Positions 30,865-50,684 of a stretch of DNA of 64,000 bases are shown in pieces. The stretch comes from Cyanidioschyzon merolae. Its lineage: Eukaryota. The DNA lies in the NCBI GenBank assembly GCA_000091205.1, contig AP006500.2; one strand, 5' to 3'. The translations under genes and the position numbers were made by a program. The stretch's first letter is position 1. Every line of letters starts with the position of its first letter. Under the pieces are notes generated by a model. It searched no databases, was not told the DNA's origin, and saw only the letters and a program-made list of their open reading frames with translations.

Positions 30865-31050
30865 GTGACGAAATGGAAGAAGAGAAGATATCATCGAGAC
30901 AAGGCGTTTGTCCTACGGGACGATGACGGGACTATAGTGGGACGGAGGATGCGAGCTCTAGGAATCCTGGCAATCATGCGTTTCACTGGAGGCAATAAAC
31001 GCAAGGAAACCGTGAACCGGGACTTCAACGCCGCCATCAATACCAGATGA
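30865..31050 (+). pseudogene. Short ORF ending in a TnpB/Fanzor-like RuvC-III motif (NRDFNAAIN); possible remnant of an IS605-TnpB/Fanzor-type nuclease gene
   Basis: 61-aa ORF (GTG start) ending ...GGNKRKETVNRDFNAAINTR*. The TnpB/Cas12/Fanzor RuvC-III consensus is D-R/A-D-x-N-A-A-x-N-I near the C-terminus. No zinc-finger cysteines are present and there is no upstream reading frame (in-frame stop at 30841..30843). If real, this is a degraded fragment. Confidence 0.2.
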
Positions 31051-31254
31051 TGCGCGGCGCTGGAGACGAGACCCGAGGAGCAGAGGCGAGCGAGCTTTGT
31101 GGGGCCCCCTCTGAGGCTCGATGTCTACGTCGAGGAAAGTGATACCGAGCGCAGGCGGTCGGTCAAGAAAGGTTGGGCAGCGTCTGCGCGTGGACACGTA
31201 CGTAGATCTTCCATGGCTGCGAAACGTTTGCGTTTACTGTCATGTTTAGTAGAG

Positions 31255-33245
31255 TTTTTTGGTTTGACACGTCGTCTACAGCGACGATAGATCCCAGATT
31301 GCGGGATGGAATCTGGTATTCGGGAAAGCATCGAACATGCAGCACCCTACCTTCAAGCTTTGTAACCCCGAATGCTTCTCGTATATATTGGTAGTTTCGT
31401 ACAGTCTATTGCGCATCGAGTGCCTGCCCTGAGCACCCGCTACAGCGCTTATACCGCTGGTGCGCATGCAGCACAGTAACGGAACGCCTTTGCCATACGA
31501 CTTGGGGCGTCGCCTGGAGGCGAACTGCCCCTGAACCAGGCTCCGGTCTTGTCGCCGCTGCGCGACGCTCTGGAGAAACCAGACAGCAGCTAGGATGAAT
31601 CCTGAGCGCCGCCTCTCACGTTCGCGATGTTGTACGCAAAGCGTTGTCGGTTGGCGACGCGGGCTTTTGCTTGGCATTCACCAGTGAGCAGGTGTGCAAG
31701 GCACCGGGCCTTCCGACGAGAAGGTAGAATGTGAGTTTGCTGGCCGCTACTGAGCGTTGGGGCTCGCTCAGTTACGAGACCGACGCCTCAATCGATACGA
31801 GCGCGGATGGATTGGACGGGCGTATGCGGCCTGTGGGGTGGTCTTGTGCCACAGGCGCTTCCGCTGACGGGTACGCGGTGCGCTCGGAGCTCGGGTGCTC
31901 TGCGCGTTTGTTACGGAGTATTGGGGTCAGCGCTGGACACGTTCAGGTACGGAGTAGGAAAATAAGCATGCATAGGATGGGGGTTTGTTGTCTTGTGCGC
32001 ACACTTGTTTCGGAATGAAGCGGAACGTGTCTATGGAGCCAGGTAGGTTGTGCGCGCTAACGCCTGGGTCTGTTGCTAGTGGTACCAGTACCAGCTTTGG
32101 TGGACCTTTCCAGCGGCGGATTTGTTTGCCGGTCCCTTAGTTTTGGATTTAAATGGGCAGGTCTTTCGTGTTGCTCCAGCTCCGTTGCCGGCAGTCGAAA
32201 GACGGCGAAAGCAGGTCAAGTCCCGAATGGTCTGCTTTGCGTAGTTGACGACACATCCCGTGCACAAGTAGTTGCTGCGGTCGACGATTCGCTTCCCATG
32301 CTCATTTTCCTTGTATGCAGCATCGGTGCGCGAGTCGCAGCAGCAGTACTCGGCTGTGGTCAGGTGTTCTCATATGACCAATAGACTTGTTCCCCGTTTG
32401 AGAGCAGGTCTGTGGCGTACGAACACCTGCTTCGGCGCTCGTTGCGTACCCTTCACGGGCACCGAAGGCGTCAGTCGGTACCCGCTTCCATCAGCGAGCC
32501 CGGTGCCGTAGCCGCCGATCACTGGCCTCCGCTGGGGTATCCCGTCGACGAGTACGGTGACCGTTGCAAACGCGTACCCTGTTGCCTTCCATAGAGGATT
32601 TGTGGAACGCGATGTTCCATATAATGAAACGAGGAACGGAAGAAGAATCAAGGCCGGAGAACAAGTTGAGGAAACTCGATCCGTCTTGGCTTCTTTCATG
32701 CAGCGCAGTGAAGCATTCTTTATTGGAATCGATTGCTGGGATGGCTCAAGTCCGAGTCCAAGACCTTCGTCTGCGCAGGATTGAGGACACGACGCGGGCC
32801 CTGCTGGAGGTTATCGCGTAACAGGCATCACGCTACAGTCGAGACCAGTTTCGCCGATGACCCTGCAGCCAATACGTATTTCTCTTTCGAGCACGAATCG
32901 GCTACTTGACTTGAGACGTCCACTGAGCATTCGGATGGAGCCTGTAACCAAGTCCTCTGTGGACAAGGTCCAGTTTCTCGCCTCGTGAACAGCGCTGTGC
33001 GAATCGCTGGGCGCACCTGACGCTTTGAAACACAAAAGATCCAAAACTTGATGCGTCCTTGATCCGAGCATGCTACTCGCACGGAAAGGCCAAGAGTGAA
33101 TGCTCCTACGCATGGTTTTGAGAATGATATCCGTTATTTTAGAATTCCGTGTTTGAATGCGTTGCGAATTGACTTGCTTTCCGTAACGCAACGAATACCA
33201 GCCGCAAAGCGTCGAGGGATCCCGCTTCGAAATGACGGCCAAGGC
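31255..33245 (+). repeat. Dispersed repeat family, full-length copy A (about 1.99 kb), unclassified, no transposase/RT
   Basis: About 97-98% identical, in inverted orientation, to 48372..50362. The same small ORFs recur in the paired copies: 31276..31677/49945..50268, 31731..32018/49604..49891, 32073..32384/49238..49558, 32370..32699/48923..49252 and 32811..33341/48380..48811. The boundaries are defined by where similarity to copy B begins and ends. Confidence 0.85.
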
Positions 33246-33434
33246 CCCTAAACAGTACGTTTCAATCAGCAGGCCCCTAGAGATGCGCTGCGAATATCGT
33301 GACTGTATATCTGGGATGCTTTTCGGAGAAAAAAATCGCAAGCCACGAGCAGAGCCAGCAGTTCATTGTTCCATTTTTATTTGTAACCGGTGTAAGGCGT
33401 TGTGCATCTCGATCAAATCAGGGTGCAGGGGTGC

Positions 33435-35891
33435 TCACTCGGGTGTCATGTGCCAGTCCTCATGCCAACGCGTGTTCCAGAGACGTAACGTTTGGTCGGC
33501 GGCACCGCTCACGAGGCCGTATTCACTCAGTGCGAGGCAATTGACGGCGCCGGTGTGGCCGAAAAACGCCCGACGTAGCATGGACGGACGACCTTGTGCG
33601 GGTTCCAGCAGCTGATGCATATCGTAGGCGCGAACGACTTGGTCCGCGCACCCGACATAGAGACGATCGCGGTCGAAGCGAAGCGCATTGATGCTGGAGC
33701 CAGTCTCGAGCACTTGGCGGCATTTGGCTGTTCGCAAATCCCACACTCGCACACACTCATCGCTGCTACCCGTGATCAAACGACTCTCATCGAACTGGAG
33801 ACAGGTGACAGAGGCCTGGGTTGCCTCACCGTCCCCAGACTGCGTCACTGGCAATGTGCGGTGGCAACGTCCGGTTCGCATGTCCCACATTTTGACAGTA
33901 CCGTCAGCACTTGCCGTGGCGAGCCCGTAGCGCCAAAACTGCAGTGCAGTGATGCCAGCCTCGTGTCCTTCCATGCGCAGGACGCGAGCGCGAGTTTCCA
34001 AGTCCCAACAGCAGAGCGTTCGATCGGTCGAACCAGTGATAACACGAGCATCATCCATTTGAATAGCCATGATAGCACCACGATGACCTCCAGCGAATAC
34101 GTGCAGACATCGGTGACGTCGTGTGTGCGGCAGAGAAGTCAGCGGCGACGAAGCGCTTTCCTCGGCGTCGTATAGTTTCCACAGACGAGCGGTGCGGTCC
34201 GCAGATCCCGACACCAACAGTGTGCCTGTTGGATGGATATCGAGGGCGTGTACCCAGCCCTCGTGGCCGTGCAGAGTGTCCTTCCGCGATCCAAACGGAT
34301 CCTTTGAGTCCACAAAAGACTCATCCAAAGACATGCAGACTGAAAGATCCCAGATGCGCAGCGTGCGATCAGCAGACGCAGAAACAATGATATCTGCTTC
34401 CTCGTGCACATCAGCAGCGAGCACCTGGCCAGTGTGCCCGTAAAGCGTACGAATGCAGAGGCGAGGGGTCAGGGAGTCGCGTTCGGAGCCCCGGGCGCCG
34501 CTGCTACTGTGGCGGCTTTCATTGGCAACGGCTCCGAGACGTGCTCCGGTCGGCATGTCCGCTGCTGCTTCGTCGGAGCTCTGTGGAGGATTCTCCGTTT
34601 TGAGCTCGGGAGGCGCACTCGTTGCACTGGGTAGGAAACTCGATCGACCGCGCCGCTCTTTGAGCGCTCGCTCCACCGCCTGAGCGACACCCGAGCCCTT
34701 GAGTTGCCGGATACGCTCCTCGAATGCAACGCTTTCAGAGCCAATAACGGTAACCTTCTCGTCCAAATTTCCAAGAAGTAGACGACTCAGTTCATCTCGC
34801 TCGCCCAGACTCTCCAGTTTCTCTTCCAAGGCATGTTTCTTGGTCAAAAGCTCTGCGAGCGCGGCCTCAACTTCCCGCAAGTCTTGAACGGTAGCGGCGC
34901 GCGCACGATAACATTTTTCGGACTCTCGAATGAGGTACTCTCGATCCGCTTGAAGCTCCAGATATAACCTCGCGATGTTTTCCAGAGACACAATATGCAT
35001 GTTTGGCGACATGCGCATAAGCCGTCTCTGTAACGGCGATGGCGCAGCGAGTGGCCCTTGATGACGATCGCTTTCCTCTGGTGCATTTTCCAATAAACCT
35101 CGGACTTTCTCTTCGGTCACATGCGGAGGCACATCGCTGGCTCCTTGCGACTGCAGAATGCGCGTCAGTGGCGATACCTGATCGTCTTTGGTTGAGGCAA
35201 GGTTTTTCGCCGCACCGAGCCAACCAGGCGAATCGGCTTCTTCATCCTGGTGGCCGAACGGAGATGCCGGTTCGACTGAGCTCGCGCCGTCCGCACCGAT
35301 AAGCGTGGACGCAGCCTGTCGGTCACTGCGTCCGTCTCTGTCAGGTGCTTCACTGACCTGCTCGTCTGAGTGGTCGATACCAGCGTGTGCACCCTGCGGC
35401 GTCCGCGTATTATGAACGGCATTTTTCACCGCCAGTGCCCTGTCCGCGTTTCTGCCAAGAGGCTCCCGAGTCGCCCCGGGACGTAGACGCGCCGCCCCGC
35501 GCTCTGGAGGCTTGCCCTCGTTCGCAGACGGCTCGACGCTTCCACGAAACTTCTGAAAAGCAGCTACTGGATCCAGTGCCTGGAGGTTCTCAGACTGTTG
35601 GTTGGTCCGCTCCCGTAGGGGCCTACTTGTGCCCTCACCTGGCCCATGGACCTTGTTCCGGGTCACAGTTGCTGCTACTTTCTTATCTTCTTTGGTCGCT
35701 TGCTTCGACTTGGTGCGCGCCCGAGTCCCTTCGGCACGAGCAGCGCTGTTCGTCCAAATACCCATCCCAGAAAGAGCCTCAAACATTTCAAAGGGAACGC
35801 TAATCGCGCAGTGCAGATAAAGCACGCCGAGCACTACCCCAAGAACAGGGAACGGTTCTGGGGTTCCGCGAGTCCCACCGCCAGCCCCCAT
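33435..35891 (-). CDS. WD40-repeat protein with N-terminal coiled-coil (striatin-like architecture)
   Basis: The six-frame ORF runs 33435..36119, but its first 76 aa are encoded by or adjacent to the 61-bp tandem repeat. The probable start is Met77 (MGAGGGT..., nt 35891). There is a central coiled-coil (IARLYLELQADREYLIRESEKCYRARAATVQDLREVEAALAELLTKKHALEEKLESL). C-terminal WD40 repeats are present (LHGHEGWVHALDIHPTGTLLVSGSADRTARLWKL, ITGSTDRTLCCWDL, ATASADGTVKMWDM, ITGSSDECVRVWDL, VSGAADQTLRLWN). Confidence 0.7.
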   Translation of the reverse strand: MGAGGGTRGTPEPFPVLGVVLGVLYLHCAISVPFEMFEALSGMGIWTNSAARAEGTRARTKSKQATKEDKKVAATVTRNKVHGPGEGTSRPLRERTNQQSENLQALDPVAAFQKFRGSVEPSANEGKPPERGAARLRPGATREPLGRNADRALAVKNAVHNTRTPQGAHAGIDHSDEQVSEAPDRDGRSDRQAASTLIGADGASSVEPASPFGHQDEEADSPGWLGAAKNLASTKDDQVSPLTRILQSQGASDVPPHVTEEKVRGLLENAPEESDRHQGPLAAPSPLQRRLMRMSPNMHIVSLENIARLYLELQADREYLIRESEKCYRARAATVQDLREVEAALAELLTKKHALEEKLESLGERDELSRLLLGNLDEKVTVIGSESVAFEERIRQLKGSGVAQAVERALKERRGRSSFLPSATSAPPELKTENPPQSSDEAAADMPTGARLGAVANESRHSSSGARGSERDSLTPRLCIRTLYGHTGQVLAADVHEEADIIVSASADRTLRIWDLSVCMSLDESFVDSKDPFGSRKDTLHGHEGWVHALDIHPTGTLLVSGSADRTARLWKLYDAEESASSPLTSLPHTRRHRCLHVFAGGHRGAIMAIQMDDARVITGSTDRTLCCWDLETRARVLRMEGHEAGITALQFWRYGLATASADGTVKMWDMRTGRCHRTLPVTQSGDGEATQASVTCLQFDESRLITGSSDECVRVWDLRTAKCRQVLETGSSINALRFDRDRLYVGCADQVVRAYDMHQLLEPAQGRPSMLRRAFFGHTGAVNCLALSEYGLVSGAADQTLRLWNTRWHEDWHMTPE

Positions 35892-36070
35892 TTCAAATTG
35901 CCGCACCTGGGCGACGCGCCACCCCGGAGGCGCATCCCGAGCGCGCCATCCGCGACTGACGGCAGCGCAGCGATCGATGCGCTCGCGGCTCCGGAGCGGA
36001 GAGCGCTGGTGCGCGTGCGCTGCCTCGGGGCATCCTCCCTGGACGAGTGAGGCACCCGCGGTACCTTGTC

Positions 36071-36320
36071 GGCGATTTGTAGAGCTGCATAGGCCGACGC
36101 GCATACAGCAGCTTCTCACTCGATATTTGGTGGCGATTTGTAGAGCTGCATAAGCCGACGCGCATACAGCAGCTTCTCACTCGATATTTGGTGGCGATTT
36201 GTAGAGCTGCATAAGCCGACGCGCATACAGCAGCTTCTCAGTCGATATTTGGTGGCGATTTGTAGAGCTGCATAAGCCGACGCGCATACAGCAGCTTCTC
36301 AGTCGATATTTGGTGGCTGA
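36071..36320. repeat. Tandem repeat, 61-bp unit x about 4.2 (ggcgatttgtagagctgcataagccgacgcgcatacagcagcttctcactcgatatttggt)
   Basis: Four near-perfect units at 36071, 36132, 36193 and 36254, followed by a partial unit. It lies immediately 5' of the WD40 gene. Each unit encodes MRSCCMRVGLCSSTNR in the gene frame, which artificially extends the ORF. Confidence 0.9.
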
Positions 36321-37812
36321 TGGCGACCAGCTGGACGCTCCAAACAGCATCGTAAGCAGGGCTTTATCCGAAGAGTACTTGCAACGCTTCTCGGTTGTGC
36401 GCAGCGCGCGCCAGTGATCACCAGGTTTGGTGCTTTTCCAGAAGGCATTAATCGGGGTTGAGCAAACCCATTGCCATAGAGGCAGCGCATGTGCAAATGT
36501 TTTTTGAGATCCTGTACTTGAGATGAGCACCCGCTTGCGTAGGCTTCCCCGAGTCTGCTGATCTATTCGGACCTGATTCATGTGTAGCGCTGGGAGCGCC
36601 ACTGCAATGCTGTGTATTTTTACTAGTTCGCGTCCGGGTGCGCGCAGGTTTATCTCCGAAACAGCCGTGCGGCGTCGGAGATCCCGTCCCAGTTTCTCGC
36701 TAGCTGCGCTGGTCCAGCTAGCTGACTTGAAGTCAACGAACGCTTGCGACTGGCCGTTCATTTTGGGGATCGTTCCGCTCGTTGAGAAGCCCGCACAAAC
36801 ACTGTCTACGACCTCGTCAGAGACTGGAATGAACCCATCAGTTGAGAGCCGGGATTGCTCAATATCTCCGCATTTATCACACAAACCGAATGACAGGGTC
36901 TCCGCCTGTGATCGTCCTCATCCCTCACGATCAAGAATAGAGGCAGTGTGCTTCCGGTCGCGAAAATGAGGTGCAACTGGATTCCACGGCCGACGCACCG
37001 AAGCATGTGCATCGTCGGCAGCGCGATGCCTCACATGCCATAGCTCTGGAGCGTTCGACTCGCCACGTGAATCACCAAGCGATGCAGAAAATAGTATTGC
37101 AGGCGTCAGCAGGCAAGACGATTGGTGCCGATTACTTGGGATCAACAACGCATTCGTCGCGACAGCGCGAATGCATCGCAAAGAATAAACGCTTTATGGC
37201 CCGGAAGCGTATTCTTTAGCGCACTCGGCCGGAAACGCCTGACGGTTGCATCCCCCGAAGACGCTCGTACGCACCTCTCCGCTCTAATAGTCTCAGTGCA
37301 CGCATGAGCGGCTTCGAAACGCGAACTGACGTGCCCCGAACGGGGCTGGCGTTAGCGCACCCCCATCTTACGGATTGATGCATACCAGTCCAGGGCGAGA
37401 AACATTTCAAAGGCAACGCAAAAGAACCTAGAGCGAACAGAGGACAGCTATCCGCATTGTGCGCTGTGAACTTGTACAGCGCTCCACCTCATCCAGTCCA
37501 GTGGCGGGAACACAGGAGAAAACGAGCCACCAATCCTCTTTGATATGTCCCATTTTTATCACCAAGTGTACCCATTCGCACCGTCGAACAGGGACTTGCC
37601 TTTGTCGCTCGAGAGCACACTGCTCATTCTCGAGGGTGCTGCGTGGAGACACAACCCCCATTGCTTCCGAGAAGAGAGGTCTCGAGGTGAGCATCTGCGC
37701 AATGGATTGTTCTCGTTCGTCGCGTATGTACTCGACCTGTTCGGTGCTTGCCGAGGAGCATTCGAGCATCGAGAAGCCCTGCGGTCGCAGACAATCCGGC
37801 ACATCAGTAGTG

Positions 37813-38517
37813 TCACAAGGATTCTCGCTTCGACTCAAATAGTTCCCGCACAACAGTGTCCACAATCGCATCGAGTCGATCTCTGGTGATCCACTGGTCA
37901 CTCTGTGCTTGGAGTATCTGTGCAAGGCGCATACGCTTCAGCTGCGTCAACCGCAACTCGACATGCTTTCGCATTATTGCTCGGGAGCGTTCCGCATCTC
38001 GCAGTGCTTGCGTTGATGCTGTTCCTTCGTCCGCGCGACGCAGTTCCTTCTCAACCGCTCGGCGTGCCAGTGTCACATAGCCCAGGCCAAACTCGTCACA
38101 GTACGCATCAAGCTGAACGGGATCGATCACGACAACCGGAGCAGCGTCCGGTGAGGGTTTAATCGGCTTCACCTCCTTCCGTAGCCGCTCCTTCAGGGTC
38201 TCCAGCTTTCGATGGTGCTCGGCTGCTTCTCGTCGTTGTTGCTGCTGCGCAGCCTCCACGCGAGCCTTCCGTGCACGTTCGATGTCCGCGCGCTCGAGTT
38301 CGTAGGCTTCACGGAACTGGCGGCGCAGTGTGTGGAGCGTTTTCTCGTATTCACGCCTCTCTCGAACAAACGGTGTGTCGGTACCGTACAACCGGAAGAA
38401 CACCCGCCGCGTCACCTCCTCTGTACGCCGTCGCAGAACGTAGGATGGAAGCGACATGGAACGGGGCAGCACGTTGCCTACGCACGCAATAGCCTCGGCT
38501 GCTATAAACGACAACAA
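37813..38517 (-). CDS. Arg/Glu-rich coiled-coil protein, uncharacterised (possibly a mitoribosomal mS26/mL64-like protein; speculative)
   Basis: 234-aa ORF with a long charged heptad region: REYEKTLHTLRRQFREAYELERADIERARKARVEAAQQQQRREAAEHHRKLETLKERLRKE. No diagnostic motif was recognised. Confidence 0.4.
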   Translation of the reverse strand: MLSFIAAEAIACVGNVLPRSMSLPSYVLRRRTEEVTRRVFFRLYGTDTPFVRERREYEKTLHTLRRQFREAYELERADIERARKARVEAAQQQQRREAAEHHRKLETLKERLRKEVKPIKPSPDAAPVVVIDPVQLDAYCDEFGLGYVTLARRAVEKELRRADEGTASTQALRDAERSRAIMRKHVELRLTQLKRMRLAQILQAQSDQWITRDRLDAIVDTVVRELFESKRESL

Positions 38518-38719
38518 CTCGATCCAGCACCAATAAACGCCTCCGTGCAGCGGCAGTGCAGTCGTTCACTGCGGTCGACACGGCAGGAACGCTGGTGAGC
38601 GTCCAACAACAACCGAACGTACCCTGTACCGATTCCCTTAAGCGCAGCGTACGCTGCGCGATCGTGGTGTCGGGGCGTAGCGCGCCGCAGGCGTGAAGCC
38701 TGCAACAGCACCCCCTTGC

Positions 38720-39075
38720 AAACGTTTTGTCTGCGAGGTGCAGCGCAAACTAGCAAAGCTAAATCGGTTCGAAGAAGCCTCTGGTGAAGGTGGGAAGGTT
38801 CCCCTATCGTAAGCGTCTTGTTTGCGAGGTGCAGCGCAAACTAGCAAATCTAATTCGCTCAGAGGAAGCCTCTGGTGAAGCTGGGAACCTATCCCCTATC
38901 GTAAGCCTCTTTTCCACAAGGTGCTACGCAAACAGGCAAGGCTGAACCGCTTCGAGGAAGCTTTTCGTGAAGGTGGGAACCTTTCCCTGTCATAAGCGTC
39001 TTTTCTACAAGGTGGTACGCAAACAACCAAAGCGACGTAACTTCGAGGAAGCTTCTCTCAAACGAACCGCTTTTC
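38720..39075. repeat. Imperfect tandem repeat, about 90-bp unit x4, in the divergent promoter region directly upstream of NDUFV2
   Basis: Four units, each containing ...gcgaggtgcagcgcaaactagcaaa...gaagcctctggtgaaggtgggaa...cctatcgtaagc.... Divergence increases toward the 39077 start codon. Confidence 0.8.
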
Positions 39076-39076
39076 A

Positions 39077-39826
39077 ATGGCGCCGTTTCCCCGAGTGGGA
39101 GCTCTAGGCATAGTTCGCCAGTGGTTTTCCCACGTGAGGCGTGGATCAGGCGGCTACTTCGAATGGAACCCGCGCCGAGCGCTTGCTGGCCGGAGTAACG
39201 TTCACCGAGACTCGGAGGGCAATAGCGAGTTTACAACATTTGACTTCAGTGAGGATAACTACAAAAAGATTGCTGAAATCCTCAAACGATATCCGGTGAA
39301 CTACAAACAATCCGCTGTGATTCCGGTGCTCGATCTCGCACAGCGCGAGTGCGGTGGCTGGCTGCCGCTGGCTGCCATGAACAAGGTTGCCCAGGTGCTG
39401 GGAATGCAGCCGATGCGCGTCTACGAGATAGCGACCTTCTACACGATGTTCAACACTGTTCCGATTGGCAAATACAATGTTCAGGTTTGTACAACGACGC
39501 CCTGCATGCTCCGTGGGGCATACGATATTCTTCGCGCCTGCGAGGAGGAGTCCGGCGCCCGTGCTGGTGGCGACTCTCCGGATGGCCTGTTCCATATCAT
39601 GGAGGTCGAGTGCCTCGGTGCATGCGCTAACGCTCCAATGATGCAGATCAACGATGACTACTACGAAGACCTGACGCCCCAGAGTGCAAAAGCCGTTCTC
39701 AAAAGCTTTCGCGACGGCAACCCGTTGAAGCCGGGGCCGCAAGTCGCGCGGAAGAGTAGCATGGGTATTCAGGGGAAAACGACGCTGCTCGAGGAGCCCC
39801 CGGGGCCCTCGTGCCGCGATTTGTGA
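39077..39826 (+). CDS. NDUFV2: NADH dehydrogenase [ubiquinone] flavoprotein 2 (24-kDa subunit of complex I, NuoE/NDUFV2), mitochondrial precursor
   Basis: FSEDNYKKIAEILKRYP..YKQSAVIPVLDLAQRECGGWLPLAAMNKVAQVLGMQPMRVYEIATFYTMFN...CTTTPCMLRGAYDILRACEEE...LFHIMEVECLGACANAPMMQINDDYYEDLTP shows the full 2Fe-2S thioredoxin-like fold signature, including the four Cys. It has an N-terminal presequence. Confidence 0.85.
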   Translation: MAPFPRVGALGIVRQWFSHVRRGSGGYFEWNPRRALAGRSNVHRDSEGNSEFTTFDFSEDNYKKIAEILKRYPVNYKQSAVIPVLDLAQRECGGWLPLAAMNKVAQVLGMQPMRVYEIATFYTMFNTVPIGKYNVQVCTTTPCMLRGAYDILRACEEESGARAGGDSPDGLFHIMEVECLGACANAPMMQINDDYYEDLTPQSAKAVLKSFRDGNPLKPGPQVARKSSMGIQGKTTLLEEPPGPSCRDL

Positions 39827-41371: not shown

Positions 41372-42063
41372 GCTGTTGCCTTCCATAGAGGATTTGTGGA
41401 ACGCGATGTTCCATATAATGAAACGAGGAACGGAAGAAGAATCAAGGCCGGAGAACAAGTTGAGGAAACTCGATCCGTCTTGGCTTCTTTCATGCAGCGC
41501 AGTGAAGCATTCTTTATTGGAATCGATTGCTGGGATGGCTCAAGTCCGAGTCCAAGACCTTCGTCTGCGCAGGATTGAGGACACGACGGGGGCCCTGCTG
41601 GAGCTTATTGCATAACAGGCATCGCACTGCAGTCGAGACCAGTTTCGCCGATGACCCTGCAGCCAATACGTATTTCTCTTTCGAGCACGAATCGGCTTCT
41701 TGACTTGAAACGTTCAGTGAACATTCGGATGGAGCCTCTAAAAAGTCGCCAGGTAACAAAGTCGAGTTGCCTTGAAACCAGAGGATCAAAAACTTGAGGA
41801 ATGCGTGATTCGAGCATGCGACACACGAGGAACTGAGCGGCCCGAAAGCGCATAGCTATGCGTTGCCTAAACCGGTCATTTATTTTAACGAACCCTAGCT
41901 CAGGGGCGTTGCGATTTATGTCGACTCCCGAGACGTAACGAATTCCAGCTTCAGGAGTATCGAACAAATGTGTCCGACACACCATCTGAGGATCCTAAAC
42001 CTCCGTATGAATCCATAAGCCATCAGTACTGCACCTCGAGTCTCGAGGCTGCACATCTGAAAA
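41372..42063 (+). repeat. Dispersed repeat family, 5'-truncated copy C (diverged subfamily)
   Basis: The 5' part matches the copy A core (A about 32579..32940) at high identity. The 3' part is a diverged homologue (about 70%) of the A/B 3' region. It is near-identical to copy D over its length (ORFs 41376..41615/56970..57227, 41514..41789/57126..57401, 41605..41985/57217..57597). Confidence 0.8.
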
Positions 42064-45000
42064 CACTGCGGAAGAATCGCATGGGCGCAACTGAGCGCCC
42101 TGTTCTGTGTTCCATTCGAATCTGACACGGGAGTCGCGAAACTTCAGGCTTCGCAGTACTGAACGCAATCGTTTCGACGGTCGTTATTCGTGCAATCCAG
42201 CGGGCTCGTCTCAAAAATCCCAAGTCATATCGAATAACCGAACACCGTGACCGTCACTCGTTGCCGGGGATAATCTATCACGGTGTATGCGTGCGGCGCA
42301 TCAACTTTGCTTCCCGTACCGTACCAGTGCCGTACTCGAGATGTGGACCCAATTCTCTGTCTCCTGGACAGTGACTTTCGTCAATGGAAGCCTTCAGAGT
42401 CTCAGCACAATGCTCCCACTGAGTATAAAGCGGCTCCCTCGAGAGTTCGGTCGACACACGAAGCCGCTGGACGCTCCGGAAAAGGCGAGTACCTCGGGGA
42501 TGCTCATCGATGCATTCAAGCGTCGGTGCGGAATGGCATGCTCGCATGGCCACGAACGGAATCGTACCCGAGTCTCCAGGGCGTGTTCGATCGCCCAGCC
42601 GTCTGACGTTCGCCCTTCCTAACGTACACGATCTCGTGGAACCTGCTCTGTTTCACGCTGGTTTTCTAGATCCGTTTCAATGTGCACCCGTCTTCGTGAC
42701 AGCCGCGTGTCGTCCTGAACGTATCGACGGGAATCGTATGGAACGGATACCTGCAGTCGTGGCACGCTCGCAGCAAACATGCAGGCGTGCAGTCCTTGCG
42801 CGCTACCGCGCGTCCATTTCCATAGGCTGCCATCGAGCGACGCGACGTATCGATGAAACCCATTTTCAACGCACTGAACGAGCAGGCGAATGCATGGTTG
42901 TTGCCTCTGTACCTCGGAAACTGTTGGCGACTCCAGCGTGCTCTCATGTAGGCCCGCCGCAGATCGCATACACGAGCCATCCGGACGCTCATGTACTCGA
43001 TGAAGTGTGGAATTCCTTCCACCATTCACCATTTTTCTCTGCAAGTGAGTGACGATGCTACGCACATAGAGCGTAGCTCATGAAGCGCCCGAAATTGACC
43101 AGCACGTGATTTGGGTTTTTGAGGTTTGCCTGATACGTTTTCGGACCGGCGCTTCACGTGCCCCGATCGTCGACTTGTCGCTGCGGCGCGTCGCGGTGCA
43201 CTGAGAAGCGAGTGTGCAGTTCTCGGAACCCCCAACCAGGTTCAGAGATGTATGCTGTGTCCGAACATCGGTCGCACTGTCGCATTAAGGTGTGATCAAT
43301 CAAGTCCAGAGGAATGTGGAAAGCTGGCAGCCCTGCCTCCGGAACTCGTAAGAAAAGCTGCTCGACGAGGTATGCCACAGCGAGAGGAGCTGGGCGAGCC
43401 TTCATCGAGAAGGAAGCCTCGCGACGCTCGACGGCGTCTTGTATCTGCTGTTGTCACGGATGTGAACAACTCGACTACTGATGCGTGAGCATAAAAAGTG
43501 GACTTTGACGGCAGGGAAAACCCCTTCGACTGGATTGTACAATAGAGCATGGGCTGGCATAAGCGCGGCCCGACGCCATTCTGCGTTGCGGCTCCTTGAT
43601 TGATTTTGAATCATGGAAAGCGACGGTATCTAAGAACAAACCAGAAGAACGCGCGAGTGAAAGGCCACAAAGTGCTCCGACGAAGAATGACCTAATGAAT
43701 GCTCCTATGCGTTTGGCGACTGATATGCAACCATGAAGCTGAATCGCCGCTTGGACTGATATTGTCGGAATGTCCGCTTGTCTCGTGTTTACGAACAGTG
43801 GGTAGCTTCGCTTTGAGTACTCATGTACAAATCTACCAACTCGACCGCATAACGTCTCACCGAGTGAAATGAACACCCGTCCTTCGCGTTTCAGTACGGA
43901 AACGCATGGAGGTTATGGAGCACTCGACGGTCGTCCAGTGAAGCGCGCTTTCCTCTTTGTGCATTCGTGTAGCGTTACCGCAATTCGTACCCAGGGAGCG
44001 GAAACTTGACATCCTGTAGATTTTCTCGCAGTATTCTGCAAAGAACTAGTGGAATGGAATGGATTGACGAGCGGGCAGCCGTGGGAAGAGAATGTAAAAA
44101 GTTTCCTTTTAGGTCTACAACGATCAGGTTCATGACTACAACGACGATGGTTCGTCCGCCTGTTGACGGTACAGAGATTGCCTTTTGGACGGAAAGCCGT
44201 TCTTTGCATGCCAGCACTGACAGCCTTAATCCTTTGCGCGACTTGTCTCCAGTTGACAGGAGACACACCCCTTGGGTTCGATATCTGCGAGAGAAACGAG
44301 GGAAAATGGGGTGTGTTGGTTTCGGCATGCCAAGTTTCACTGCGCTGAGCATAACAGCGGCAAGCGAACCCCCTCTGAGCATTGGACTCGTTCAAACAAA
44401 CTGTGCTTCTTTTGTACCAGTACATTCGACAAACGCTACGCTTCTGTTGAGCGCCCCACGCCCGCCAAGCAGTGCTCCGGCTACCCACAGCAGCGTCGGC
44501 GGCAGTTCTTGTGGTCTCACGGTTTGCACACGATGCGTTTGTTGGTGCTTTCGTGCGACTCCCGCCACTGGAAACCTTTGAAAAACCCGCACTGTAAACG
44601 TTTCGCTGCGGTTTGGTCGAAACTCGAGCGCACGGACGCTCGCAGCACCACGCTTCGCGGGTGGCAGCGCGATCGTCACCGGGTCCGGTGCCGACCTGTC
44701 GCTGACCACCCAGAAGCCCGTGCTACACCCTGTTCACCTACTGGTCTCCTAGTCAAACCGGTACGTTGCCGCGTCTCGCATGCCGTCTACTGCTTCCGCC
44801 TCCGCTCGTATAGATGCGGTAGTTGCTTCGGGGTACGCGCCTGCCGCGTTCCACGATAGAGCCGCCAGCGTCTCCGCAGCGCCGAACGATGGCTGAACGA
44901 GGGCGCGCGGAGACGCACCAGCGTCAGCTTCGTCTCCGCAGCTGCAGGCGAGGCGTCGCCGCTCATCCACAACCGTTCTGTGTGTGTGTGTGTGTCGAGT

Positions 45001-45177
45001 GCCTGGCGCACGACCTACGGAAACGCACACCGAGTAGCTCTGGAGACAGCGACGTGTCTACGAGCCCGTTTCGCGATACCAGAGACTGAACCGGTTACGG
45101 TCTGAGCACAACCAGAACGCTCTCCGTGTTCCGCTGCGGAAAGGTCGGCCAGCGGAGGCGTTAGCGGCAGCAACACC

Positions 45178-45819
45178 ATGAATCTCTTTCGTTTGTGCGG
45201 GGACCTCTCGCACGTTGTGTCGATTGTATTGCTCTTGCTGAAGATCCGTGCTACGCGCTCCTGCGTTGGCATCTCACTGAAAACTCAGTTTTTGTACCTG
45301 GTGGTCTTCGTCACTCGCTACCTGGACCTATTCGTTACGTTCATCTCCCTGTACAACAGTGTGATGAAGGTAGCGTTCATCTCAACGACGGCCTATATCT
45401 TGTATTTGATGTTTTTTAAGTTCAAACATACCTACGATAAGGACCACGACACTTTCAGGATTCAATTCTTGATCGCGTTCGCAGCAGCGCTTGCGTTCGT
45501 TACACCGCACCGCTACTCGTTGCTCGAGGTGCTGTGGACGTTCAGCCTCTGGTTGGAGTCGGTCGCCATCCTGCCACAGCTCTATATGCTGCAGACGACT
45601 GGCGAGTGCGAGAACCTAACGAGTCATTACATTTTCGCGCTGGGGCTTTATCGAGCGCTGTACGCTGTCAACTGGGTGTACCGCTACAGCACCGAGCCCG
45701 GCTACTGGCAACCTGTGACTTGGATAGCGGGTATCCTTCAAACAGCACTCTATGGAGACTTCTTTTACTATTACGTCGCGAGCAGAAGACGAGGTAAAAG
45801 GCTCAAGCTTCCAACTTGA
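45178..45819 (+). CDS. ERD2: ER lumen protein-retaining receptor (KDEL receptor, ERD2)
   Basis: 213-aa, 7-TM protein. MNLFRLCGDLSHVVSIVLLLLKIRATRSCVGISLKTQFLYLVVFVTRYLDLF... matches the ERD2 N-terminus ([37 protein letters not shown]) closely. Length and hydropathy are typical. Confidence 0.85.
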   Translation: MNLFRLCGDLSHVVSIVLLLLKIRATRSCVGISLKTQFLYLVVFVTRYLDLFVTFISLYNSVMKVAFISTTAYILYLMFFKFKHTYDKDHDTFRIQFLIAFAAALAFVTPHRYSLLEVLWTFSLWLESVAILPQLYMLQTTGECENLTSHYIFALGLYRALYAVNWVYRYSTEPGYWQPVTWIAGILQTALYGDFFYYYVASRRRGKRLKLPT

Positions 45820-45892
45820 TCAGGTTGCGAGGCCCCATTGCCCCGTGCTTCAATGCGAGCACTTTCAACACTGACCAGTGCGCGCTGCACGG

Positions 45893-46095
45893 TGTCATGT
45901 CATGTTCTATTCTATTCTATTCTATTCTGTTCTGTTCTGTTCTGTTGTGCGATGCTGCACTGCCGCATCGACATGCGTCCAGCGACGCTGATAACGGCAG
46001 GTGTTCTCGCGGTGCACGATCGACGAACGCATACACATACAGATAGACATATACATACATACATACATATACATACACATACACATACCGCCAAG
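45893..46095. repeat. Compound microsatellites (ttcta)n(ttctg)n and (catac/ata)n in the KDEL-receptor 3' region
   Basis: Read directly: tctattctattctattctattctgttctgttctgttctgttg, and catacacatacagatagacatatacatacatacatacatatacatacacatacacatacc. Confidence 0.85.
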
Positions 46096-46203
46096 GCATG
46101 GCGGGCAACGCGTCCGATGATGCGCGCACACAAGGCGAACGTGCAGGCACCGCCGAGGCCGGGGCTCGCATTCACCTGTCGTGTTGTGCGCTCGTTTCGC
46201 TGT

Positions 46204-48069
46204 TCATTCGCTTGATAGATTCCTTGGACTAGGTGCATTCGCTGGTGCACTCTGAGGTTTGATTTGCGTCTGAGCCGGCGGTCGACGGTTGCAGATCAGT
46301 GCTTGACCATCGGCGGAAACTTGCGCGCCACTTAGTGTCAAGATTTGTTCTAACGAGGAGCACCGCTCTGGATGCAGCGTGCTGTTGCGATGCTGCTTCA
46401 CCGATGCGCGATGTGGCGATCGCCTTTCGGGTATCGAGGAGTCTTCAGGATTGAGATCCACGAGCTCTTCGATGAAACCCAACGGGACGCTGGGACGGTA
46501 AGCAGTCTGAACGGCGTTGAGAACTTGTTGAACAATGCGCGTGTCGAACCAGGACACCAAATGCCTTGCCGTTGGTGGCAATCTCTTTCGGATACGCATA
46601 AACGAAAAGTAATCGTGGCGAGCGAGCGCTAGAACGAGCTGCACAGTAGTGCTCCACAGGTCTATCGTGTCGCGTGCAGCGCTTGATTCGGCGACAGTTT
46701 CGGCAGCAGCATCGCCAAGCAGGTCTTCGTCGCGCAAAATGAGCCGAACATCGAGCAGACTCCCGGTATACAGAGCCAACAAAACGCTGTACGAGAGAAA
46801 TTCTCTCTGATTGGAACGATATTCGGAGCGACTCGCCTGGAACAATGATTTCAGCATCGAAAGGCACTGGCTGAGCTCTGCGACGTCGTCGTGGAAGATG
46901 GCGAGGCGAGCATGCGTCTCGTATACATCGAAAGCGAGGCGATGTTCAGCACCTAGACCTTGCACTTGCATATCCTGCCGAATGGCTTTCAACTGCTCGC
47001 GAAGGAAGGTATAGTCTATGCTGCCATGCTCCCATCGCGACATGAGCTGGGCGAAAGCCGTCTCCAGAACGGAAAGCGGGCGAACTTGATCAGCTTGGGC
47101 CTCTTTCGTGAGTCGCAAATATGTTTTCTCCAGGACAGCCGACGTTCCGACGAGCCGATGTGCATGCGCATCCGTCTGCTGCAGAGACGCCCGCGAGTTA
47201 TCCTTGGACACGATAAGCTGGGATGCTTCCAGGCGCTGTCCGCATTTCAGGTGTTCCCGGAAACGTTCCGCACGGGCACGTCGCCGGGATGCTTCCGCGT
47301 GTGCACTGGGAGTGTGCATTGGCGAGCCACTTTGATGCCGCAGTAGCGTATCGGGAGAAACTGGATCCCAACCGGCCCTTAAATGATGGTTTCCTAACTG
47401 GTTTTCCAACGGGTAAATTGCCGCATCATTGCCCGACAAGGCGGAAGCAGCTTGCAAGGGTGTCATTCCCAGCGGGTGTGCAGCCGGTCGCTGAGGCATA
47501 TCCGCTATGCCTCGTCGGTCGGGAACTCGCGTTCCCGTCATCGCTTTGGGGAAAAACGCGTGGTTGCCCAGCGAAATACCCGCTTTTTCCGAGACCTTCG
47601 GTGCGGTGGCTTGGAGCTTGGGCCCTGCTGGCTGGGCCTGCAGGCGATTGTCCCGGGAACCGGTCCGTTCTCTTTGCGTGACGGCTTCCGCGAGTCCACC
47701 CGCCGCTAGACAGGTCGTTTCCGTCTTGGACAAGCTTTTACCCGAGCCGTCCCCGTCCTGTTTAGCGCCCGGACGAAAAATGGGCGGTGCAGGGGCGCGT
47801 CTCCCGTCGACGCAGTTCACATAGACGGTGAGCGACCGACCGGCGTCGGCTGCGGCAGGGTTCGGAAGCTTTCGGCGCTCCCAGAGCCAGCGCGTTCTAT
47901 CCAGTCGCGAATCATACAAGAACTCTCGTCCCGCTTCGTCCAGGTGATATGAAATGTGCGACGGAAGCAGCGCTCGATAGTATTGTCGGTTGGCCTCGAA
48001 GAGTTGCGCTCCGATCGCTGGGACCTCCATCAGTCCGCAGCTGCTGGCAAAGTTGACCTGTACGGTCAC
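46204..48069 (-). CDS. SAC3/GANP-domain (PCI-type) protein, LENG8/Thp3-like
   Basis: 621-aa ORF. The C-terminal half contains the SAC3/GANP core YTFLREQLKAIRQDMQVQGLGAEHRLAFDVYETHARLAIFHDDVAELSQCLSMLKSLF (consensus ...LRSIRQDLTVQ...VYE.HARIALE..D..EFNQC). The N-terminal half is low-complexity. Confidence 0.6.
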   Translation of the reverse strand: MTVQVNFASSCGLMEVPAIGAQLFEANRQYYRALLPSHISYHLDEAGREFLYDSRLDRTRWLWERRKLPNPAAADAGRSLTVYVNCVDGRRAPAPPIFRPGAKQDGDGSGKSLSKTETTCLAAGGLAEAVTQRERTGSRDNRLQAQPAGPKLQATAPKVSEKAGISLGNHAFFPKAMTGTRVPDRRGIADMPQRPAAHPLGMTPLQAASALSGNDAAIYPLENQLGNHHLRAGWDPVSPDTLLRHQSGSPMHTPSAHAEASRRRARAERFREHLKCGQRLEASQLIVSKDNSRASLQQTDAHAHRLVGTSAVLEKTYLRLTKEAQADQVRPLSVLETAFAQLMSRWEHGSIDYTFLREQLKAIRQDMQVQGLGAEHRLAFDVYETHARLAIFHDDVAELSQCLSMLKSLFQASRSEYRSNQREFLSYSVLLALYTGSLLDVRLILRDEDLLGDAAAETVAESSAARDTIDLWSTTVQLVLALARHDYFSFMRIRKRLPPTARHLVSWFDTRIVQQVLNAVQTAYRPSVPLGFIEELVDLNPEDSSIPERRSPHRASVKQHRNSTLHPERCSSLEQILTLSGAQVSADGQALICNRRPPAQTQIKPQSAPANAPSPRNLSSE

Positions 48070-48371
48070 TGGTGGTAAAGATAGCGTTTATGTCCGTCCT
48101 TTTCGAACGCAAACGTACTGACCTACGATATTTCTTTTACGAGCTGCTTGGTGGTCGTACAGTCAAATCCCGTGAAAATACGCAGTTTCGACCTGGGTTT
48201 CGTTGTAGCGGGCGAAGGACGTCACGGTCGCTACGCACTCGAGTCAGATTGCGATGGAGCACTGAACTAGTCGGTACGTTCCTTTTTTCTCGATTTGCCC
48301 CGAACCTTATAGACCTGCAGGCTCAAGATTCGAAATTCAGAAATAAAGACTTCAAGATGCATGCATAGTCT

Positions 48372-50362
48372 TCGGATTCTTGGTCGTCATTTCGAAGCGG
48401 GATCCCTCGACGCTTTGCGGCTGGTATTCGTTGCGTTACGGAAAGCAAGTCAATTCGCAACGCATTCAAACAAGGAATCCTAAAATAACGGATATTATTC
48501 TCAAAACCATGCGTAGGAGCATTCACTCTTGGCCTTTCCGTGCGAGTAGCATGCTCGGATCAAGGACGCATCAAGTTTTGGATCTTTTGTGTTTCAAAGC
48601 GTCAGGTGCGCCCAGCGATTCGCACAGCGCTGTTCACGAGGCGAGAAACTGGACCTTGTCCATAGAGGACTTGGTTACAGGCTCCATCCGAATGCTCACT
48701 GAACGTCTCAAGTCAAGTAGCCGATTCGTGCTCGAAAGAGAAATACGTATTGGCTGCAGGGTCATCGGCGAAACTGGTCTCGACTGCAGTGCGATGCCTG
48801 TTACGCGATAACCTCCAGCAGGGCCCGCGTCGTGTCCTCAATCTTGCGCAGACGAAGGTCTTGGACTCGGACTTGAGCCATCCCAGCAATCGATTCCAAT
48901 AAAGAATGCTTCACTGCGCTGCATGAAAGAAGCCAAGACGGATCGAGTTTCCTCAACTTGTTCTCCGGCCTTGATTCTTCTTCCGTTCCTCGTTTCATTA
49001 TATGGAACATCGCGTTCCACAAATCCTCTGTGGAAGGCAACAGGGTACGCGTTTGCAACGGTCACTGTACTCGTCGACGGGATACCCCAGCGGAGGCCAG
49101 TGATCGGCGGCTACGGCACCGGGCTCGCTGATGGAAGCGGGTACCGACTGACGCCTTTGGTGCCCGTGAAGGGTACGCAACGAGCGCCGAAGCAGGTGTT
49201 CGTACGCCACAGACCTGCTCCCAAACGGGGAACAAGTCTATTGGTCATATGAGAACACCTGACCACAGCCGAGTACTGCTGCTGCGACTCGCGCACCGAT
49301 GCTGCATACAAGGAAAATGAGCATGGGAAGCGAATCGTCGACCGCAGCAACTACTTGTGCACGGGATGTGTCGTCAACTACGCAAAGCAGACCATTCGGG
49401 ACTTGACCTGCTTTCGCCGTCTTTCGACTGCCGGCAACGGAGCTGGAGCAACACGAAAGACCTGCCCATTTAAATCCAAAACTAAGGGACCGGCAAACAA
49501 ATCCGCCGCTGGAAAGGTCCACCAATGCTGGTACTGATACCACTAGCAACAGACCCAAGCGTTAGCGCGCACAACCTACCTGGCTCCATAGACACGTTCC
49601 GCTTCATTCCGAAACAAGTGTGCGCACAAGACAACAAACCCCCATCCTATGCATGCTTATTTTCCTACTCCGTACCTGAACGTGTCCAGCGCTGACCCCA
49701 ATACTCCGTAACAAACGCGCAGAGCACCCGAGCTCCGAGCGCACCGCGTACCCGTCAGCGGAAGCGCCTGTGGCACAAGACCACCCCACAGGCCGCATAC
49801 GCCCGTCCAATCCATCCGCGCTCGTATCGATTGAGGCGGCGGTCTCGTAACTGAGCGAGCCCCAACGCTCAGTAGCGGCCAGCAAACTCACATTCTACCT
49901 TCTCGGCGGAAGGCCCGGTGCTTTGCACACCTGCTCACTGGTGAATGCCAAGCAAAAGCCCGCGTCGCCAACCGACAACGCTTGGCGTACACCATCGCGA
50001 ACGTGAGAGGCGGCGCTCAGGATTCATCCTAGCTGCTGTCTGGTTTCTCCAGAGCGTCGCGCAGCGGCGACAAGACCGGAGCCTGGTTCAGGGGCAGTTC
50101 GCCTCCAGGCGACGCCCCAAGTCGTATGGCAAAGGCGTTCCGTTACTGTGCTGCATGCGCACCAGCGGTATAAGCGCTGTAGCGGGTGCTCAGGGCAGGC
50201 ACTCGATGCGCAATAGACTGTACGAACTACCAATATATACGAGAAGCATTCGGGGTTACAAAGCTTGAAGGTAGGGTGCTGCATGTTCGATGCTTTCCCG
50301 AATACCAGATTCCATCCCGCAATCTGGGATCTATCGACGCTGTAGACGTCGTATCAAACCAA
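48372..50362 (-). repeat. Dispersed repeat family, full-length copy B (about 1.99 kb), inverted relative to copy A
   Basis: See copy A. The reverse complement of 48372..50362 aligns end-to-end with 31255..33245, with a few substitutions and one or two small indels (for example the frameshift near LYET/LYEL). Confidence 0.85.
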
Positions 50363-50684
50363 AAATAGAATCAGGGGATCGCAACGGAGATCATTTCGAC
50401 GCCACGCGGGGACGTCCTGACGGCCTCTCCGACGCCCGCAAGCCGCACCGAACGGTTATTGTGGCAGAAACGATCCCAGTTCGAGCGGATCCCCGGCGAC
50501 GGGTGGTAGACAACGCTGCTGGACCCGCTGGTGCTGCCATGCGGGGACCGACCCGCCCGACGGACAGAGCAGTGGACGCTCTGACCAGCGTTGGCATCGT
50601 CACTTGGTCAAAGCCTCTGCTCAGAGACTGTGGAGGTGTCGTCTCCGCGGGCCCTGGAGCACGGTTTTTTCCGTTCTGTGACGG

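Follow-up and report, generated by a model that had tools for sequence, protein, structure and literature searches.

On chromosome 18 of the red alga Cyanidioschyzon merolae 10D, two near-identical repeats of about 2 kb, copies A and B, lie in inverted orientation on either side of a block of genes. The locus raises the question whether the repeats and the enclosed genes form a mobile or switching unit, or whether the bracket is incidental. We addressed this in a window of 64,000 nucleotides of contig AP006500.2, to which all coordinates refer, together with metagenome contigs and the genomes of two related cyanidiophytes.

Extent and content of the repeat pair

The blastn alignment of 31256-33243 to 50365-48379 had 1,988 columns and 98.642% identity, the 27 differing positions being 26 mismatches and 1 gap. 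The inverted-repeat search returned two arm pairs, 31396-33243/48379-50226 (1,848 nt, 99%) and 31256-31396/50225-50365 (141 nt, 98%), which represent a single repeat because a 1-nt indel splits the A/B alignment. In a MAFFT alignment with 100-nt flanks both edges were abrupt, the left one at 31256/50365, where the repeats start with TTTTTGGTTTGA, and the right one at 33243/48379, where they end with GACGGCCAAG; the spacer between the arms measures 15,135 nt. The pair of near-identical inverted 2-kb repeats claimed in the initial annotation is thus real (98.64% over 1,988 bp) and each of its ends had been placed correctly to within 1-7 nt, while the 97-98% given there slightly underestimates the identity.

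Repeats are classic sites of mis-assembly, but it is very improbable that the duplication is an artefact of the reference assembly. Two metagenome contigs, L008 (covering 26598-32268) and L010 (49357-56997), which are 99.2-99.6% identical to the window, reproduced the outer junctions of A and B, respectively, and independent short-read contigs also gave a further repeat copy (D) and the core boundary of another (C). As the outer junctions of both copies are independently confirmed, mis-assembly is unlikely, and A and B moreover differ from each other. A, B and the mosaic pattern described below are also present in independent strains that are 0.4-0.8% diverged from the window.

No gene was found in A or B, the longest entry in the ORF listing being 176 aa, and tblastx between diverged copies of the 3' module (X) scored all frames alike, with stops in all and no frame-specific conservation. 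The 734-aa CMe-1A consensus protein gave no Fanzor1 similarity inside A/B in tblastn searches, and the whole window contained no tRNA and no Rfam match at the gathering threshold. Terminal inverted repeats (TIRs) were not found in A/B, as their scores stayed inside the shuffle range, which is a negative trait of weak discriminating power. Likewise, no target site duplication (TSD) was found at A or B, with a longest flank match of 4-5 nt. A and B are non-coding, composite repeats made of transposon-derived modules.

Features of the locus, with positions in the window
Feature	Position	Strand	Remarks
Copy A	31256..33243	+	1,988-bp unit, 98.64% to B (inverted-repeat search, blastn, MAFFT)
Copy B	48379..50365	-	A unit inverted, located between the divergently oriented SAC3 (-) and a 359-aa ORF (+), in the intergenic region
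Head of A	31256..31537	+	homologous to 5' end of CMe-1A/TE-N2_CMe
Middle segment of A	31538..32007	+	about 470 bp, seen in A and B only
X in A	32008..33397	+	profile core 32148-33316
X in B	48226..49614	-	profile core 48307-49474
X copy C	40949..42062	+	left part about 55% to A, core 97-100%, right part D-like
X copy D	56554..57674	+	56551-57353 98.6% to B; C-type from 57353 on
X copy E	15564..16739	-	old, about 60% to A
X copy F	9829..10958	+	old, nhmmer E=1.2e-126
CMe-1A (Fanzor1) remnant 1	30671..31188	+	internally deleted, RuvC-III motif VNRDFNAAIN kept
CMe-1A remnant 2	11078..11601	-	internally deleted, 71% to remnant 1
Fanzor1 remnant 3	42669..43459	-	protein level only, aa 66-192 and 509-620
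Solitary head fragment	54635..54906	+	head profile positions 4-273
Bracketed ancestral block	33435..48069		five genes and repeat debris

Modules of the repeats

CMe-1A is the Fanzor1-encoding element of C. merolae, with about 150 copies, and TE-N2_CMe is its 635-bp non-autonomous relative, with about 70 copies; the family has neither TIRs nor TSDs (Bao & Jurka 2013, PMC3627910). Against the CMe-1A consensus, taken from supplement 2 of PMC3627910, the head of A was 76.6% identical over positions 4-256, the homologous stretch being about 265 bp, and an nhmmer profile of the head matched those of A and B with E=4.5e-83 and 3.2e-80. The family-invariant 21-mer GATCCCAGATTGCGGGATGGA is found in the A head at 31290-31310, and A begins with TTTTTGGTTT, as does the independent TE-N2 copy L023/L026; the A/B head starts at the 5' terminus of the family. 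With regard to the hallmarks of a non-LTR retroposon or SINE (A-rich 3' tail, TSD of variable length, 5' truncation), nearly every head is preceded by a run of T, which is A-rich in the complementary strand, and head fragments of 170, 256-273 and 635 nt have this T-rich-flanked end in common. Past position 256, comparison of A/B with CMe-1A/TE-N2 gave only a collinear 18/21 island (score 15, shuffle maximum 18), and A/B do not match the 635-bp TE-N2 unit over its whole length. The far end of TE-N2 itself is sharp, at consensus 635-636 in four distinct loci, and one TE-N2 copy inside X is flanked by a possible degenerate 13-bp duplication. RNAalifold on 12 head copies gave a weak consensus (-18.6). 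For the middle segment, neither the remainder of the window nor the 25 metagenome loci contained a match, orthologous contigs excepted, and its similarity to CMe-1A 251-900 was not significant.

The 3' module of A and B is formed by X, an older dispersed repeat of about 1.2-1.4 kb with six full-profile copies in the window. It was also present in 7 of the approximately 8 other distinct head-bearing metagenome loci sampled, at about 57-72% identity to the window copies. In the cited C. merolae repeat literature X was not found under a name; it may already have one in Repbase. A truncated third copy of the repeat had been proposed at about 41.3-41.8 kb, and a third copy (C) does lie there, but it is a full-length, diverged 3' module. 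Copy E has a head fragment (16696-16863) immediately upstream on the same strand, with a head/X junction that differs from that of A/B, and copy F lies tail-to-tail with remnant 2. Matches to Fanzor1 in tblastn searches of the window were confined to 11.1-11.4, 30.9-31.1 and 42.7-43.5 kb, the last of these (remnant 3) with E=3.6e-19 and 3.2e-7, and the 3' end of remnant 1 reaches the start of A.

Mosaic copies, bracketed genes and the origin of the pair

Identity between A and B holds at 98.6% up to 33243 and is 48% over the following 75 nt, inside continuous X, and in both copies these 75 nt can be aligned in register to where X ends in C, D and E. The last approximately 150 nt of X in A (33244 onward) fall outside the A/B identity block. 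The tail of B (48305-48378) is X-derived as well, with 48% identity to that of A and a score of 21 against that of C (shuffle maximum 11). The core of C (41366-41741) shares 97-100% identity with A, B and D, and its right part (41741-42063) agrees with D at 322 of 323 positions and with A at only about 50%. Four of the local X copies are mosaics, with sharp in-register switches between about 99% and 50% identity. At the B-D and C-D tracts X extends about 140 nt upstream and about 80 nt downstream of the tract ends, so that the breakpoints are internal to the repeat. A complete X at both the A and B sites, with near-identity that stops about 150 bp before its end, suggests that each site held an older, diverged member of the family.

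Several other accounts of these patterns were considered and rejected. Selection on the 380-bp X core, which is the same in A-D, does not fit with copies elsewhere, which are only about 70% identical there, and the old copy E is just mildly better in the core than outside it (67-71% vs 50-60%); the identity of the core is due to recent copying rather than constraint. Had the B-D and C-D tracts begun at the termini of X, transposition would have been favoured, but longer alignments showed their breakpoints to be internal. B is also not a 3'-truncated copy of A, as the flank of B has its own diverged X tail. Near-identical donors for the B tail, the left part of C and the A/B private segment were not present in the 25 metagenome loci.

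The mosaic suggests that older copies resident at their sites have recently been subject to ectopic copying, probably by gene conversion, and in this respect the recent duplication or ongoing gene conversion suggested by the initial annotation holds. Older, diverged members of the repeat family would already have resided at the A and B sites when about 2 kb of one locus was overwritten, non-reciprocally, with the sequence of the other, an event that would have taken place before 10D and the metagenome strains diverged. Ectopic gene conversion or another form of recombination-dependent copying is the likely mechanism, and the same process would also have patched C and D, the X copies nearby. 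The inverted layout around 15 kb would be a by-product of where the repeats sit. The identity and limits of the repeats, the family to which each module belongs, the lack of coding capacity, the ancestral synteny and the mosaic pattern are observed directly. While the direction and the mechanism of copying are steps that we infer, we regard this account as a whole, of a composite repeat, local copying between older copies and an incidental bracket, as likely to be correct. The account does not explain how the tracts would start, as homologous recombination between old X copies of about 55-60% identity should be inefficient.

The block between the repeats contains genes for a WD40 protein (-), a 234-aa protein (-), NDUFV2 (+), the KDEL receptor (+) and SAC3 (-), all of them conserved, single-copy housekeeping genes. 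The block is gene-bearing as had been proposed, but with five conserved protein-coding genes instead of seven, the remainder being repeat debris. Its NDUFV2 ORF is 100% identical to the C. merolae 10D protein. In a close relative, the WD40 gene is adjacent to a kinase gene and SAC3 is followed by the genes for a 345-aa protein, a kinase and C78; the two junction spacers, of 1.0 and 1.27 kb, showed no repeat similarity. In Cyanidium caldarium, one contig carries SAC3-KDELR-NDUFV2-217aa-WD40-kinase-184aa-MS channel. Gene order and orientation in both relatives match the window across both junctions, and the repeats are absent at both sites. As relatives without the repeats keep this order and orientation, no inversion has been fixed here, nor is the block the cargo of a transposon; it is an ordinary 15-kb stretch of ancestral chromosome that has kept its orientation.

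The proposal of a composite or foldback transposon that has A and B as arms and the gene block as cargo, suggested by near-identical inverted arms around a discrete block, is accordingly hardly credible: the enclosed genes and their outside neighbours are syntenic in two relatives that have no arms, TSDs were absent at all candidate outer ends examined, and the cargo would consist of single-copy housekeeping genes. An inversion of the 15-kb segment by homologous crossing over between A and B, with the two orientations side by side in populations or cultures of C. merolae, is also unlikely. Inverted repeats of about 2 kb at 98.6% identity and 15 kb apart could serve such an exchange, gene targeting is reported as established in C. 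merolae (PMC3764038), and at five sites in 31630-31783 the A-locus contig carries B alleles and the B-locus contig A alleles. However, both junctions of the reference are oriented as in the ancestor, and each metagenome assembly has a single contig through the repeat, L008 (Ga0078972) and L010 (Ga0123519), so that the repeat was collapsed and the choice of allele in the assembly bubble was arbitrary. Two swapped blocks then have a chance of about 1 in 4, the sites at 32064-32096 are alike in both contigs and unswapped, and none of the contigs spans a whole arm. The reciprocal allele swap is ambiguous as an inversion signal, and collapsed-repeat assembly explains it best.

One-ended or read-through transposition is possible, although we consider it less probable than copying between residents. 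Here the CMe-1A/TE-N2_CMe machinery would have recognised the 5' terminus of the head at one locus and mobilised the head together with the private segment and X, with either B or A as the product, and the end of the 2-kb product would finally have been resolved against a resident X at the target locus. It would fit the left A/B edge, which lies exactly at the family 5' terminus, the lack of TIRs and TSDs in the family as in A and B, and the finding of one head with three bodies, namely nothing more (TE-N2_CMe), a Fanzor1 gene (CMe-1A; PMC3627910) and X (A/B and E). The right edge, on the other hand, is no element end but lies inside continuous X, in register at both loci, and a homology-dependent step is therefore needed in any case. 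Transposition also leaves unexplained the B-D and C-D tracts, with their internal in-register breakpoints at both ends. No further young copies of the A/B type were found in the 21-mer scan of metagenome contigs, and the family has no known transposase. A boundary exactly at the transposon terminus, which transposition predicts, speaks against simple conversion, which should leave a diverged anchor there; the excess of differences at the left end is mild, with 3 in the first 30 nt. We hold it doubtful that the approximately 265-bp head is the sole cis-acting part of one-ended mobilisation, or that the A/B pair flips the block naturally, or both. If true, one-ended mobilisation that drags downstream sequence along would account for the head on a 635-bp element, on a Fanzor1 gene and on X, and the step from A to B would then be a recent case of such capture.

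Under the preferred reading of copying between resident repeats, the bracket looks incidental rather than like a mobile or switching unit. The initial annotation had regarded the pairing as probably incidental if the repeat occurred hundreds of times across the genome in random orientations, which describes half of what was found: the modules are multicopy on both strands, but the young 98.6% version, including its head, was seen at the A and B loci only when metagenome contigs were scanned for exact matches to the 21-mer.

Significance and comparison with known repeats

In C. merolae, a 'minimal' eukaryote used as a model, repeats have been counted but hardly dissected. At this locus, the 5' head of one family is seen to be joined to three or more different bodies and to travel together with X, a second non-coding repeat that is abundant, and nearby copies swap sequence in kilobase-scale tracts. 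Young local repeats of this kind are a hazard for engineering of C. merolae by homologous recombination and for the assembly of related genomes. A and B are ordinary transposon debris with modest local homogenisation, and reveal neither a new kind of element nor a gene-regulatory switch.

Like A/B, CMe-1A has a 5' end with the invariant 21-mer, no TIRs and no detectable TSDs; unlike A/B it carries a Fanzor1 ORF, the similarity to A/B ends at about position 256 with none at the CMe-1A 3' end, and its copies match their own consensus at about 80%, against 98.6% identity between A and B. TE-N2_CMe resembles A/B in being short and non-coding with the CMe-1A 5' end, and its copy L023/L026 has the same start, but A/B depart from it after about 256 nt and run 1.7 kb further through unrelated sequence and X. 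Previously, dispersed transcribed repeats averaging about 3.2 kb and making up about 5% of the C. merolae genome were defined by a truncated ORF similar to WSV486 of WSSV (2007, PMC1955436), a virus that encodes one Fanzor1 protein (Bao & Jurka, PMC3627910). These repeats share the genome with A/B, and the three Fanzor remnants of the window belong to their class, but A/B have no WSV486-like ORF.

In Y-chromosome palindromes and plastid inverted repeats, gene conversion takes place between the arms, and inverted repeats can mediate inversion. A/B resemble these systems in their inverted, near-identical arms with a sharp drop of identity at the arm edges, and could in principle invert the spacer as well; no orientation isomers of it were seen among the short-read contigs, none of which spans an arm. 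Unlike those systems, the arms of A/B are about 2 kb of transposon debris, and copies in direct orientation 8-9 kb away have also been homogenised.

Inverted copies and the genes between them

With blastn, the two inverted copies A and B aligned over 1,988 columns at 98.642% identity; the differences were 26 mismatches and a single gap. In an alignment with 100-nt flanks the similarity was abrupt at both ends. The initial annotation thus had the coordinates and the identity essentially right. The repeat search returned the pair as two pieces of 1,848 nt and 141 nt, divided at a 1-nt indel. Seven genes had been placed between the copies; our count was five conserved genes.

Features of the A/B region and of related repeats in the window
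Feature	Coordinates	Strand	Basis or remark
Copy A	31256-33243	+	inverted-repeat arm
Copy B	48379-50365	-	inverted-repeat arm
WNK-like kinase	26841-30224	-	Pfam
WD40 protein	33435-36119	-	Pfam
NDUFV2 ORF	39077-39826	+	ORF, 100% identical to the C. merolae 10D protein; gene confirmed by Pfam
KDEL receptor	45178-45819	+	Pfam
SAC3	46204-48069	-	Pfam
Kinase	52800-54293	-	Pfam
C78 peptidase	55208-56188	-	Pfam
X copy in A	32148-33316	+	profile
X copy in B	49474-48307	-	profile
X copy C	40949-42062	+	profile
X copy D	56554-57674	+	profile
X copy E	16739-15564	-	profile
X copy F	9829-10958	+	profile
Degraded Fanzor1 copy	30671-31188	+	reaches up to start of A
Degraded Fanzor1 copy	11078-11601	-	
Degraded Fanzor1 copy	42669-43459	-	
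Solitary head fragment	54635-54906	+	head profile
Solitary head fragment	16696-16863	-	head profile

Gene order was compared with Cyanidium caldarium and with a close relative represented by contigs of NCBI GCA_041825655.1 and JGI metagenome contigs, with a coding identity to the window of ~72-80%. One contig set of the relative carried NDUFV2(+)-KDELR(+)-SAC3(-)-345aa(+)-kinase(-)-C78(-) and the other WD40-kinase-223aa-MS channel-ABC, in agreement with the window in order and orientation across both the A and the B junction. The relative's spacers at the A and B sites were only 1.0 and 1.27 kb (the latter compared to 2.6 kb between SAC3 and the 359-aa ORF in the window), and none of A, CMe-1A, X and Fanzor had a match in them. 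A single 487-kb contig of Cyanidium caldarium carried SAC3-KDELR-NDUFV2-217aa-WD40-kinase-184aa-MS channel, collinear with the window, and its WD40-kinase spacer was 524 bp compared to 3.2 kb in the window. This collinearity in both species shows that the 15-kb segment is not inverted relative to the ancestor and was not carried as cargo by a foldback or composite element; the earlier suggestion that A and B could be the arms of such an element is not supported, as the genes of the block are ancestral in order and orientation.

B lies within the divergent promoter region of SAC3 (-) and the 359-aa ORF (+), 48070-50684. All contigs of the close relative (L001-L004, L031-L032) stopped between the WD40 and 233-aa genes, which suggests that this interval holds a repeat or a tandem array in the relative too. 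In the window, the WD40 ORF has a 61-bp tandem repeat (4 copies, 98% matches, 36071-36317) at its 5' end or a short distance upstream, and this repeat was also kept in the metagenome strain contig L030. A 91-bp tandem repeat (3.5 copies, 78% matches, 38736-39056) filled the divergent intergenic region directly upstream of the NDUFV2 start codon, and a 90-bp (30-codon) tandem repeat (4 copies, 97%, 61355-61711), which is covered by long, overlapping ORFs on the two strands, probably encodes a repetitive stretch of protein.

Composition of A and B and their relation to known repeats

Previously, a ~3.2-kb interspersed element with 253 copies, making up ~5% of the C. merolae genome, was described to have a truncated ORF resembling WSV486 of WSSV (Nozaki et al. 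2007, PMC1955436). Bao & Jurka (PMC3627910) listed one Fanzor1 (TnpB-like) protein for WSSV; CMe-1A is their name for the Fanzor1 element of C. merolae (3,169 bp, ~150 copies, ~80% identical to the consensus). The separate element TE-N2_CMe (~70 copies) is 95% identical to the first 635 bp of CMe-1A; neither element has TIRs, and the TSDs of both were given as undetermined (PMC3627910). The CMe-1A consensus used here was taken from the supplement of that paper.

The 5' part, or head, of A (31265-31520) was 76.6% identical to positions 4-256 of this consensus, and B likewise; a profile of 12 head copies matched A with E=4.5e-83 and B with E=3.2e-80. The family-invariant 21-mer GATCCCAGATTGCGGGATGGA was present at 31290-31310 of A. 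As the opening bases of A, TTTTTGGTTT, also start an independent TE-N2 copy (L023/L026), the left edge of the A/B identity is a true element terminus. Past consensus position 256 no significant similarity of A and B to CMe-1A was detected. The private segment of A (~31538-32007) matched only orthologous contigs when the window and 25 metagenome loci were searched, and the remainder of A, starting at ~32008, is a copy of the older dispersed repeat that we call X. In A and B we found no ORF >176 aa, Fanzor similarity, frame-specific conservation, Rfam match, tRNA, TIR or TSD. The repeat population to which A and B belong is known and specific to this genome, and they are a new, composite addition to it.

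Six full-length X copies, located by profile matches, were present in the window, and the profile also found X in seven of the ~8 other distinct head-bearing metagenome loci sampled. Pairwise homology spanned about -140 to +1250 from the profile start, and copies outside the window were only ~57-72% identical to those inside.

A degraded CMe-1A 3' end (30671-31255) adjoined the 5' terminus of A (31256 onward) head-to-tail, and at L014/L029 two heads stood in tandem, 1,929 bp apart; new insertions may favour the ends of family members already in place. Repeatedly (9829-11601; 40949-43459; L007 6083-7517) X stood tail-to-tail with an inverted CMe-1A remnant, whose 3' end it faced, and the arrangement common to F and L007 matched at 68.6% over ~500 nt past X. 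A single longer element may once have comprised X together with the 3' end of CMe-1A. At L023 1751-3565 (the same site as L026) an X copy was interrupted by an inserted TE-N2_CMe copy; X profile positions 576-589 occurred on both sides of it, and the flanks TTGTAATCTATCG / CTGGAATCAGTCG are possibly a degenerate ~13-bp target duplication. In the 5' flanks of ~10 distinct copies, nearly all CMe-1A/TE-N2 heads had a T-rich run, differing in sequence and length, ahead of their CGATGACAAAAC start. This run would be an A-rich tail if read on the other strand, and head fragments of 170, 256-273 and 635 nt have the CGATGACAAAAC end in common, which raises the possibility of a retroposon-like mobilisation in the opposite sense.

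Mosaic structure and mode of copying

After 33243 the identity between A and B dropped from 98.6% to 48%, measured over the 75 nt that follow. The X tails of C, D and E aligned with this 75-nt stretch, in register, in A as well as in B (B tail against C tail: score 21; shuffle maximum 11), and therefore a complete X is present at both loci and the A/B identity block ends inside X. Copy C was 97-100% identical to A in a 380-bp core (32572-32950), but ~55% to the left of it and ~50% to the right. D was 98.6% identical to B at 56551-57353 and onward matched C at 322 of 323 positions. As the X core elsewhere is only ~70% identical, these mosaics point to recent local copying and not to selective constraint, which backs the earlier proposal of recent duplication or ongoing gene conversion. 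Metagenome contigs broke exactly at the mosaic junctions 41360 and 56997, indicating that the mosaic is real and common to other strains.

Ectopic gene conversion, or other homology-guided copying, among resident repeat copies 8-24 kb apart is favoured as the mechanism, because each breakpoint is internal and keeps the register. A serious rival is a transposition-type event that began at the head terminus and whose resolution involved a resident X copy, since the A/B identity begins at the element terminus and old copies, ~55-60% identical, would be a poor substrate for homologous recombination; both points count against pure conversion. Conversion-type copying is ahead of this rival, but not by much. 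With high confidence, A and B are transposon-derived repeats and their bracketing of the block is incidental.

The JGI metagenome contigs were scanned for the exact 21-mer, which gave 25 loci at ~10 distinct sites, mostly CMe-1A or TE-N2 copies. The A/B-type head was found in four loci, three orthologous to A (L008, L009, L015) and one to B (L010), all 99.2-99.6% identical to the window. As all four are orthologous to A or B, the young 2-kb version appears in this exact-match scan to be limited to these two sites, while its modules are themselves abundant. Both copies are older than the split of 10D from the metagenome strains.

Orientation of the block and known systems

At five diagnostic sites (31630-31783) L008, at locus A, had the B alleles and L010, at locus B, the A alleles, a reciprocal swap as expected from a crossover inversion between 31395 and 31630. 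However, sites 32064-32096 were the same in both contigs, and each metagenome assembly had only one contig through the repeat, so that the repeat was collapsed and the allele blocks chosen arbitrarily. No contig spans a whole arm, and the swap, likely due to such collapsed assembly, with the crossover as a less probable source, was given no weight for or against inversion.

In sequence, A and B qualify for inverted-repeat-mediated inversion; of the two orientation isomers that define it, only the reference one was observed. None of the tests for a composite transposon was passed. To CMe-1A and TE-N2_CMe A and B are related through the head only: both the Fanzor ORF and the 3' end of CMe-1A are absent, and the full-unit homology test for TE-N2_CMe was failed. 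The locus is also a tidy local case of sequence exchange between repeats.
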